A DNA stretch of 64,000 nucleotides from the sequence record OR896157.1, one strand, 5' to 3'. Positions 30,923 to 56,929 of the stretch are shown here, one piece after another. Position 1 is the first letter of the stretch. Every line of letters begins with the position of its first letter. The stretch is from a phage. The notes beneath the pieces were generated by a model that made no database searches, was not told the DNA's origin, and saw nothing but the letters and a program-made list of their open reading frames with translations. Both the position numbers and the translations under genes were made by a program.

Positions 30923-31459
30923 TTACCAGCCTGCCGTGTCAAATTCACCATCATCGTAGATGTCCCAAGCCATTCTTTCTTCAAGAACTCGGACTGGTGT
31001 CCAATAGTCCGCATATTCCTGGTCTTCTGGAGAAGAGAATTTATTTGCTTTAAGTTCAGCCATAAATTCCAAAGCGGATTCAACATCACCGAACAGACGG
31101 TTCAAGTTGTGAGGTTTACGTTCAGGGTCTTCAAATACTGCGTTATCACCAGGGCAAATTTGAGTACGATAAGAACGCTTTGTTTCGCCGTTGATGTCAG
31201 TATACTCGCAGATGATATCAACCATCAAGATATCTGATGTTGGGCTACGATATGGTTTACTGAGGATAATGTACTTGCTAACTTCATCCAGCGACACAGT
31301 AGTTTCAGTACGAGATACACCGTACACATGATACATGATGCGGCCTGGAACGAAATCAGATAATTTAGTAATGCGATTCATGATGTTCTCCTCTTGTTTG
31401 TGTAAGGTCATAGTATCACCTTTTGAAGAGGATGTAAACGGTTCCTTTAAAAACAACAA
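30923..31459 (-). CDS. hypothetical protein
   Basis: 178-aa ORF. Confidence 0.5.
   Translation of the reverse strand: MLFLKEPFTSSSKGDTMTLHKQEENIMNRITKLSDFVPGRIMYHVYGVSRTETTVSLDEVSKYIILSKPYRSPTSDILMVDIICEYTDINGETKRSYRTQICPGDNAVFEDPERKPHNLNRLFGDVESALEFMAELKANKFSSPEDQEYADYWTPVRVLEERMAWDIYDDGEFDTAGW
31409..31438 (-). promoter_or_regulatory. T4-type early promoter (GTTTAC-N18-TACTAT)
   Basis: minus-strand motifs. Confidence 0.55.
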
Positions 31460-31484
31460 AAGCCCTGACCAAAAAAGTCAGGGC
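31450..31484 (-). terminator. intrinsic terminator (8-bp stem + U-run)
   Basis: minus-strand GCCCUGAC-UUUUUUG-GUCAGGGC followed by UUUUGUUGUUUU. Confidence 0.65.
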
Positions 31485-31489
31485 TCAAA

Positions 31490-31882
31490 TTATTCCAAAG
31501 ACAGCAAGTATTTGGTTTGAAACACTATACCATTGATTTCGTCAATTGTGTTTCTGATTGCTCCAGGCATCTTGTCGTAGATGCTTTCAGCTTTTGCTGT
31601 GATGCTATCGAGCATCTCAATCGTGTCAGTAGGCAAATCCTGTTGCGATGGTATAGATGGGGTGTACTTTTTACCGGACCATCCAAGCCATTGCTCTCCG
31701 AACTTGTCGGTTAACTCAGGGATTGCATCAAAGAAGAAATTGTATGCTTTGTGACGAGCATAGCTTTTAGTTTCAAAATGAGCTGAGTGGAAGTATGATG
31801 CAGAAGCCATCAAAAGACCAATGAACTCATCCTCTGGAAGTTTCTTTCCGGTTGTTATGAAATCTTCAAATTTCGTTTTCAA
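31490..31882 (-). CDS. hypothetical protein
   Basis: 130-aa ORF. Confidence 0.5.
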   Translation of the reverse strand: MKTKFEDFITTGKKLPEDEFIGLLMASASYFHSAHFETKSYARHKAYNFFFDAIPELTDKFGEQWLGWSGKKYTPSIPSQQDLPTDTIEMLDSITAKAESIYDKMPGAIRNTIDEINGIVFQTKYLLSLE

Positions 31883-39467: not shown

Positions 39468-39694
39468 ATTTCACCCCAACTAATTTCACGAAGTCTTTGC
39501 ATGATTGACTCAACTTCTTCAATCATATCTTCATCGCAGTCAAATGAACCTTCTACCATCCAATCACTAATTGGAGTGAACATTTCAAGGTCCGTAGATA
39601 GACGATTACGAATATCATCTACTGATTCATTGTCGTTGAAGGAGTACAGGTAAGAATCAGCCGATTCAGATTTAACAAATACCGCAATACTCAT
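39464..39694 (-). CDS. hypothetical acidic protein
   Basis: 76-aa ORF. Confidence 0.45.
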   Translation of the reverse strand: MSIAVFVKSESADSYLYSFNDNESVDDIRNRLSTDLEMFTPISDWMVEGSFDCDEDMIEEVESIMQRLREISWGEI

Positions 39695-40002
39695 ACCTTT
39701 TCCTCTAAGAAGTCAGACAGTTTAAAATCTTTACGGTCCATCAGACCATAGTGAATGTTCTTCAGCGTATCGTACATGTCCCAGTACTTTTCTTTTAGCA
39801 TATTACCAAATGGTGGAATATAAAGCTTATCCCATTTAGCAGCTAACTCACCATTGCGCAGTTCTCCTGGAACATTTTCAACGATACGTAAAACTTTAGT
39901 TGCAACCTCATAATCGGATGGCGGAATCCATCCCCAATTATGATGTACTGAACCGTTAATTTCGCCATTCAGCGAAGTAAAAATCGTAGCTGGACAACTC
40001 AT
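39691..40002 (-). CDS. hypothetical protein
   Basis: 103-aa ORF. Confidence 0.5.
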   Translation of the reverse strand: MSCPATIFTSLNGEINGSVHHNWGWIPPSDYEVATKVLRIVENVPGELRNGELAAKWDKLYIPPFGNMLKEKYWDMYDTLKNIHYGLMDRKDFKLSDFLEEKV

Positions 40003-54928: not shown

Positions 54929-55519
54929 TTACCTCATAGAAGGATGCATTCCAACAGATGAACGAGACTGAGCAGCCTGTTCGATATTTTGTTTACCTAC
55001 TATGATTTTACCATCTTTTTCTATTTGCAAATACTTGAATGGGAACATTGCAGTGCAAATAACAGCTGGGTCAGTATCTTCAGTATAGCTGAATTCTACT
55101 TCGCCTAAATCAGAACACCAAGCTCCATAATAATGAAAACTCATTACAATTTTCTTCTTGGAGTTATCAAGCATATGCACAGAAACATGAGGTGGAACGA
55201 ATCCGGGTTTCCACGCTTGAGAGTTAAAATCTACGTAGTTGTTAATCGAAAGCATCCATTGATACATCTGAAGCCAAGAGTTTAGGTCTTCATCGACTAA
55301 AAAGCGTATGACCAGTGGGTCATGCTCAAAAGTTGAGCCTGGCAGTTGAGAACGTGCTAGACCACCTTGTCCAGATGGAGTTTCAGTGATAGGGATGCGT
55401 ATACCTGGTATATTAGCTGATTGCACGTTAAGCGTAAAAGCTTTTGTCAATCCAGCATCAGGAATATCTACTATAAAGTTAGTAATATTCGTTTGGTTAA
55501 AAAGTTGATTGGCGTCCAA
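54929..55519 (-). CDS. 3: tail completion / sheath stabiliser protein gp3 (TTG start)
   Basis: 196-aa ORF between genes 1 and 2; first in-frame start is TTG with AGGAAA SD; no in-frame ATG near 5' end. Confidence 0.65.
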   Translation of the reverse strand: MDANQLFNQTNITNFIVDIPDAGLTKAFTLNVQSANIPGIRIPITETPSGQGGLARSQLPGSTFEHDPLVIRFLVDEDLNSWLQMYQWMLSINNYVDFNSQAWKPGFVPPHVSVHMLDNSKKKIVMSFHYYGAWCSDLGEVEFSYTEDTDPAVICTAMFPFKYLQIEKDGKIIVGKQNIEQAAQSRSSVGMHPSMR

Positions 55520-55544
55520 TTCGCTTTCCTTCTGAAGTAGTTAT

Positions 55545-55582
55545 AATGGTTTTGAGTTCTTCCGGAGCAATCAATATCAATC
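55545..55582 (-). promoter_or_regulatory. 10-bp inverted repeat hairpin between genes 2 and 3
   Basis: CTTCCGGAGCAATCAATATCAATCAATCCGGAAG; followed on the minus strand by late-promoter-like TATAACTA. Confidence 0.35.
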
Positions 55583-55600
55583 AATCCGGAAGAAGATGGA

Positions 55601-56443
55601 TTAAGATTTCCAAACAGCAGTAGCAGAATAACGTTTGCCTTTTGACATGAACTGTTGAGTTGGTAACATAACAACGTTAGCCCAGTCTGCTGGCTTAATT
55701 TCTACTAAACTTCCTTTGATATGACCAGGAAGATAAGCTTTAATCATCTTATCCGCGCCAGCGAAACCCTTAACTTGACTCCAATTAATCTTCAACTTAG
55801 TTTTGTTAGTAATAGTCGGAGTGTTAGCATATTGCTTTAGCAACTCTTCGAGAAACTGTTGTCGTGCTTTTGGTGGAATATAGTGCAAGTTCAAGCCATA
55901 CATCAACGTAGTTGAGCCTTGTTTACCCAATCCCAAATAAATAATCAATGGAAATCTATCCCAGAATGGAAGTGTGTCTTTATGTTTAGCATCATACATA
56001 TAAGCATAAAGTTTTCCTGGAGTAGGTTTTGATACCTGATGACCACGAATATTTTTCTTCATTGTCTCGTTGAACCAACGAGCTGACTTATTGTTAACAG
56101 CTGCGCCTTCGTTAGCAATCTTTTGACGAATGCTCTGACGGAAACTGTTAATCATCACAAGTTGTCTTTCTTGACGAGTAAGTTTCTTTGGATTCTTTCC
56201 TTCGAGTTTAGCAACTTGAACAGCTGTCTTAATTCTCGAAGAATATCTGCTCATAGCTTTTGTGAATGTAGCATATTTTATGCCTTTTTCTTCGGCAAAA
56301 GATTTGGCGGTGGCACCTTTCTTTTTCGCTTCAGCATATTCTACACCTATCTCTACCCATTTTCTTTCGTCTTTAGGGACTGTTCGAGCTATCGGTTGAG
56401 CACCTTCATTAAGCAATTCAAATATAGCCATTAGCCTTTCCAC
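55601..56443 (-). CDS. 2: DNA end-protector / head completion protein gp2
   Basis: 280-aa ORF in gp2 position and size. Confidence 0.7.
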
Positions 56444-56902: not shown

Positions 56903-56910
56903 TATTACTA
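56903..56910 (-). promoter_or_regulatory. T4 late promoter TATAAATA for gene 4
   Basis: minus-strand TATAAATA ~25 nt upstream of gene 4 start, in the divergent 4/53 intergenic region. Confidence 0.6.
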
Positions 56911-56929
56911 TTTATAAAGTGGAGGCTTT

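Follow-up and report, generated by a model that had tools for sequence, protein, structure and literature searches.

Gene 3 of a CC31-like Karamvirus is very probably translated from a TTG start codon

In phage T4, the gp19 tail tube is capped by a hexameric ring of gp3, to which gp15 binds in the completion of the tail (PMC12929629, PMC3004832). gp3 is similar to gp19 in fold, its residues 2-15 contact gp15 extensively (PMC12929629), and a virion contains six copies of gp3 versus 138 copies of gp19 (PMC3004832). Gene 3 of T4 and of T2 starts with ATG and encodes 176 amino acids. In bacteria, initiation at UUG is well described: in E. coli, UUG is a canonical start codon that works at 10-100% of the level of AUG and leads to an N-terminal methionine, near-cognate codons initiate at 1-2% of AUG, and approximately 3-4% of annotated bacterial genes use UUG (bioRxiv 10.1101/063800). 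The locus described here resembles this canonical situation in having a UUG with a Shine-Dalgarno (SD) element at normal spacing. Among described T4-type phages, CC31 (GU323318, CC31p150) and PG7 (NC_023561, CG98_gp278) have a gene 3 that is 96-100% identical to the one studied here, in a homologous 591-nt coding sequence with TTG start and with AGGAAAGCGAA upstream, as in our sequence.

We analyzed a stretch of 64,000 nucleotides of phage DNA (record OR896157.1), which we call the window. Around the start of gene 3, a segment of 951 nt has 100% identity to Enterobacter phage vB_VIPECLUMC02 (OQ721913.1) and 97.7-99.9% identity to PG7 and CC31, which belong to the genus Karamvirus (Tevenvirinae). 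When all 64 kb are compared, the identity to OQ721913.1 is approximately 95-98%, with indels, which indicates a further isolate from the CC31/PG7-like T4-type Enterobacter phages of the genus Karamvirus. OQ721913.1 annotates the gene 3 coding sequence at the same coordinates, and CC31 and PG7 have the homologous coding sequence.

The predicted protein matches T4 gp3 in a phmmer comparison (PDB 9mkb_AC, also 9mof/9x3p; E=4.8e-67, query residues 4-174 to chain residues 6-174), the Pfam family PF06841 of gp19-like tail tube proteins (35.5 bits, cut-off 28.2, E=1e-8) and PHROG 45 (E=2.6e-50). Open reading frames, Pfam and PHROG matches of the neighbors and the annotated records agree on the gene order 4-2-3-1-57A, which is that of T4, and place the gene in the late cluster between gene 2 and gene 1. 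The match to T4 gp3 and the shared gene order thus indicate that the label "gene 3", which the original prediction had already attached to this frame, is correct. By homology to T4, the protein would form a hexameric ring that caps the gp19 tube and binds gp15. It shares with T4 gp3 the homology over residues 4-174, the gp19-like family, the neighborhood and the FNQxNxTNF segment, but differs from it at both ends. At the N-terminus, it is two residues shorter and starts with TTG instead of ATG. At the C-terminus, it carries an extension of about 22 amino acids (...GKQNIEQAAQSRSSVGMHPSMR, 54929-54997 (-)), which is absent from gp3 of T4 and T2, but common to RB69, RB49, Dhakavirus, Jiaodavirus and others.

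The list of open reading frames gives gene 3 as 196 codons plus stop, with a TTG as its start (Table 1). Going upstream from this codon, one meets the in-frame codons GAA, AGC, GAA, AAG, CAG, CTT and CTA and then the stop codon TAA, and the sequence contains neither ATG nor GTG between TAA and TTG. The earliest in-frame ATG is codon 85 (55267-55265), so that the original claim of a frame without ATG near its 5' end holds. TTG is the first canonical start codon after the in-frame stop and lies 5' of all conserved residues. In a relative known from an IMG/VR Karamvirus contig (L019), the space for alternatives is narrowed further by an additional in-frame TAG 12 nt before the TTG. As ATG, GTG or TTG occur by chance at about 3/64 per codon, one could well meet a TTG in a stretch of about 13 codons, and the weight of the argument therefore rests on conservation and on the alignment of orthologs, not on the codon itself. 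The product of the TTG-initiated gene has 196 amino acids and opens with MDANQLFNQTNITNF... Its predicted N-terminal tryptic peptide is (f)MDANQLFNQTNITNFIVDIPDAGLTK, with 26 residues; with Asp as residue 2, it probably keeps its methionine.

Table 1. Features at and around the gene 3 start (positions in the window)
Feature	Position	Strand	Basis
Gene 3 CDS, tail tube terminator (tail completion and sheath stabilizer protein), 196 aa, TTG start, TAA stop	54929..55519	-	ORF list; PDB, Pfam, PHROG matches; annotated relatives
Gene 3 TTG initiation codon	55517..55519	-	sole ATG/GTG/TTG from in-frame TAA to FNQTN motif
Shine-Dalgarno element AAGGA, overlapping AGGAAA, ~7 nt before gene 3 TTG	55527..55531	-	sequence; 16S 3' end duplex -5.7 kcal/mol
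In-frame TAA opening gene 3 frame, 21 nt before TTG, within conserved CATTATAAC box	55541..55543	-	sequence, aligned lineages
CATTATAAC box ~20 nt upstream of gene 3 start, contains in-frame TAA	55540-55548	-	invariant in 8/8 aligned lineages
Conserved RNA hairpin, 10-bp lower stem TTCTTCCGGA/TCCGGAAGAA + 5-bp upper stem	55557..55594	-	MFE fold, consensus fold
Gene 2 (DNA end protector) stop codon	55601..55603	-	ORF list, records
T4-type late promoter box TATAAATA, 28 nt upstream of gene 4 ATG	56909..56916	-	pattern search
Neighbors of gene 3: gene 4 (head completion), gene 2 (DNA end protector), gene 1 (dNMP kinase), 57A

Comparison with orthologs speaks for the TTG. When the protein was compared with 50,697 phage records by tblastn, 1513 records matched, and the alignments began at query residues 1-8 with the exception of the most distant matches; PDB and tblastn alignments together place the onset of similarity at residues 3-8 of the TTG-initiated protein. 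We read 13 more distant orthologs from Straboviridae (Cronus, PSD9, Q7622, RB69, T2, RB49, KSKp, AM101, 50AhydR13PP, phT4A, GAP161, phiAS5 and avDM6). All 13 have an annotated ATG start 3-10 codons ahead of a conserved motif, (F/L)NQ(T/A)N(I/T)TNF. With its N-terminus M1-DANQL-F7NQTNITNF, the window has TTG at the same position as the ATG starts of these orthologs. Residues 2-15 of T4 gp3 have their counterpart in the extreme N-terminus of the TTG-initiated protein. An ortholog alignment had been named beforehand as the test that could speak against the TTG, by pointing to an ATG further downstream, and it favors the TTG instead.

The closer relatives give the same picture at the nucleotide level. 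The window and all 15 other loci read from CC31-type Karamvirus and Gelderlandvirus share the TTG without exception (loci with TTG: L001-L003 and L018-L022 for the former, L004, L023, L024, L100, L101 and L103 for the latter). The Salmonella S16 group (S16, Melville, STML-198, CGG4-1, SEA1, AKM_NP4) has TTG at the homologous codon, and the Citrobacter phages CkP1, Moon, CF1 and Merlin have ATG there. The aligned sequences are ...ATAAGCGAA ATG GAT ACA CAA CAA ATT TAC AAT in CkP1 versus ...GAAAGCGAA TTG GAC GCC AAT CAA CTT TTT AAC in the window, with AGCGAA directly before the start codon in both. In CkP1, in Moon/CF1/Merlin and in the S16 group, hairpin, CATTATAAC box, SD element, start codon and N-terminus follow each other as in the window. 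Their gp3 proteins share about 70% identity with that of the window, and those of CkP1 and Moon/CF1 are 89-92% identical to that of S16. The in-frame TAA is conserved among the aligned lineages, and the spacer between SD and start differs by 1 nt in length between Moon and the others, whereas past the start codon the differences among lineages are largely in third positions and synonymous. The conserved TAA, the TAG of the L019 contig and the 1-nt indel of Moon, as opposed to the synonymous changes downstream, indicate that the sequence immediately upstream of the TTG is not coding.

The element AGGAAA, which the original prediction had placed at correct spacing before the TTG, is present at 55530-55525, 5 nt ahead of the start codon. 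It overlaps AAGGA, which pairs with the 3' end of 16S rRNA, with a spacer of about 7 nt, so that the complementarity falls within the 5-9 nt upstream of UUG, and the claim is borne out. In the predicted minimum free energy fold, the UUG lies inside a small hairpin, AUUGG-ACG-CCAAU, of 5 bp (55508-55520 (-)), which, as modeled, could reduce the accessibility of the start. The idea of a regulatory structure that hides the UUG was rejected: the complementary sequence is absent at the matching position of S16, as judged by eye, and for this reason the hairpin is probably fortuitous. There was also no sign of an autoregulation of the IF3 type or of another special mechanism at the gene 3 UUG.

Initiation at a different non-canonical codon, either ATT at codon 12 or ATA at codon 16, or CTA or CTT upstream of the TTG, is the alternative that survives best, and even so we consider it very improbable. 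Such codons are present in frame, and near-cognates can work in E. coli at the 1-2% of AUG quoted above. However, the ATT and ATA codons have no purine-rich SD-like element before them, as judged by eye, and a start at either of them would cost the protein its conserved residues F7-N11. As for CTA and CTT, they overlap with the SD element or lie ahead of it, and the in-frame TAG of L019 cuts them off from the gene; sister lineages have ATG precisely at the TTG codon, not at any of these positions.

Still less credence can be given to translation from the ATG at codon 85, which would yield a protein of 112 amino acids and leave the upstream part of the open reading frame untranslated. ATG greatly predominates among start codons (116 of the 125 annotated coding sequences in the 64 kb of OQ721913.1 that are homologous to the window), and the related phage SEA1 is indeed annotated from a downstream ATG. 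However, no ortholog uses the codon 85 start, and the SEA1 call skips a conserved TTG. Moreover, a start at codon 85 would delete 84 conserved residues, including the counterpart of the T4 gp3 arm that contacts gp15, although residues 4-84 are conserved as protein across Straboviridae, with variation of the synonymous type. Just as hard to credit is an origin of the TTG from faulty sequencing or assembly, or from a recent mutation of ATG that would have inactivated the gene in this isolate: TTG is one base away from ATG and the close relative CkP1 has ATG, but the same TTG is found in the window and the 15 other loci, which come from independently sequenced isolates and metagenome contigs of two genera, the open reading frame is intact, and T4 gp3 serves as tube cap and gp15 binding partner in tail completion.

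On the basis of sequence comparisons, we hold with high confidence that gene 3 encodes the hexameric tail tube terminator and that its translation begins at the UUG (55519-55517) by means of the AAGGA element; frame limits, homology, ortholog starts, SD element and existing annotation all support the start originally proposed at 55519. In this model, AAGGA, about 7 nt upstream, would position the 30S subunit at the UUG, and initiator fMet-tRNA would read it as methionine. In the protein synthesized in this way, the N-terminal segment would be the counterpart of the arm by which T4 gp3 attaches to gp15, the tail terminator. A search of Karamvirus papers yielded no N-terminal proteomics or ribosome profiling of gp3, and the one virion study by mass spectrometry that was checked, LC-MS/MS of ECLFM1, does not report gp3. 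A literature search on CC31, T4-like phages and start codons, covering titles only, returned no title that bears on the start of gene 3.

The TTG start is not new. Public records already use it, namely those of CC31 (GU323318, gene 3, CC31p150), PG7 (RefSeq), OQ721913.1, S16 (RefSeq), Melville and AKM_NP4, and the Melville record annotates the ribosome-binding site of gene 3 as well. It is therefore an already known, ordinary and correct annotation point. In the segment of OQ721913.1 homologous to the window, the annotated starts comprise 116 ATG, 6 GTG and 3 TTG codons (125 coding sequences), so TTG is rare there, but not exceptional, much as in bacteria. The other two TTG starts in this record (31200-31592 and 39494-39973) belong to a "starvation-inducible transcriptional regulator" and a nudix hydrolase, and, like the six GTG starts, stem from automatic annotation. 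That the start is easy to miss, as had been claimed, is illustrated by Salmonella phage SEA1 (OQ927978.1), in which gp3 is annotated at 554-988 from an internal ATG, with a product of 144 amino acids. The conserved GGAG-N9-TTG is present at position 401 of the SEA1 locus and gives the full gp3 of 195 amino acids, which indicates that the 144-residue call is a mis-annotation. A separate irregularity concerns gene 2 of PG7 (NC_023561.1), which spans 820-1671 as opposed to 820-1650 in CC31 and OQ721913.1 and is thus 7 codons longer; the PG7 match is 952 nt long versus 951 nt for the query, 1 nt longer. The difference points to a single-base indel close to the 3' terminus of the gene, which may be real or a sequencing error.

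An untranslated spacer of 81 nt separates the gene 2 stop codon from the TTG, and gene 3 is therefore without direct stop-start coupling to gene 2; its translation from a polycistronic late mRNA is probably independent. The spacer contains a strong hairpin, which Karamvirus, Moonvirus and Gelderlandvirus have in common and whose core of 8 bp is almost invariant. The 156-nt region around it folds with -29.3 kcal/mol (z = -2.4). In the consensus fold of six lineages, the lower stem has standard pairs in every sequence, six of them invariant and two with G-U wobble changes only, and three pairs nearer the loop show double changes. The hairpin is context and no part of the gene 3 start site; it may be an mRNA-stabilizing or processing element. 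A consensus scan found no intrinsic terminator at the hairpin, and no T-run follows it on either strand. The AKM_NP4 record annotates the hairpin as a terminator, on the opposite strand. Assignment of the spacer to an Rfam family was tried and rejected, since the sole match, CRISPR-DR32, is at chance level (20.9 bits versus a gathering threshold of 48, E=0.4).

A late promoter directly upstream of gene 3 was also considered and rejected, as CATTATAAC resembles TATAAATA but does not match it. We take TATAAATA to be the T4 late promoter consensus, an assignment that relies on established T4 knowledge. Its only exact occurrence nearby is the one upstream of gene 4, which is the probable source of the late transcript over genes 4-2-3-1. 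Within this transcript, the gene 4 stop codon overlaps the gene 2 ATG (TAATG), which suggests translational coupling from 4 to 2. The longest open reading frame of gene 2 opens at GTG 56443, whereas all records annotate ATG 56431 (56429-56443 (-)). At the other end, the gene 1 ATG (54927) lies 1 nt past the TAA of gene 3, and the GAGG of gene 1 falls within the last part of gene 3.

A weaker start may suit a protein that is needed at only six copies per virion, and UUG would be expected to lower gp3 initiation relative to AUG. Dosage tuning of this kind is plausible, but T4, T2 and RB69, which make the same six-copy protein from ATG and a strong SD, lend it no support. Within the clade, a neighbor-joining tree of gp3 places CC31-type Karamvirus (TTG) as sister to a group with CkP1 (ATG), Moon/CF1 (ATG) and S16/CGG4-1 (TTG). 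As all outgroups have ATG, the tree suggests at least two switches between these start codons. SD strength varies along with it: the TTG lineages have AAGGA (-5.7 kcal/mol, window) and GGAG (-6.4 kcal/mol, S16), versus GAGA (-2.9 kcal/mol) in the ATG lineages CkP1 and Moon, a comparison that is anecdotal, with four lineages. One could speculate that in Karamvirus, Moonvirus and Gelderlandvirus at least two switches between AUG and UUG, with inversely matched SD strength, reflect selection that fixes a low set-point of gp3 translation, but we consider this rather unlikely.

The TTG start as such matters only for the quality of annotation, where gene callers and curators that prefer ATG cut 50-84 residues off this essential tail protein. 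If the speculation about a set-point were true, compensatory changes in two determinants of initiation would hold gp3 at its level (6 copies versus 138 of gp19), and the alternation of ATG and TTG with matched SD elements, seen in four lineages only, would be a small natural example of compensation between start codon and ribosome-binding site.
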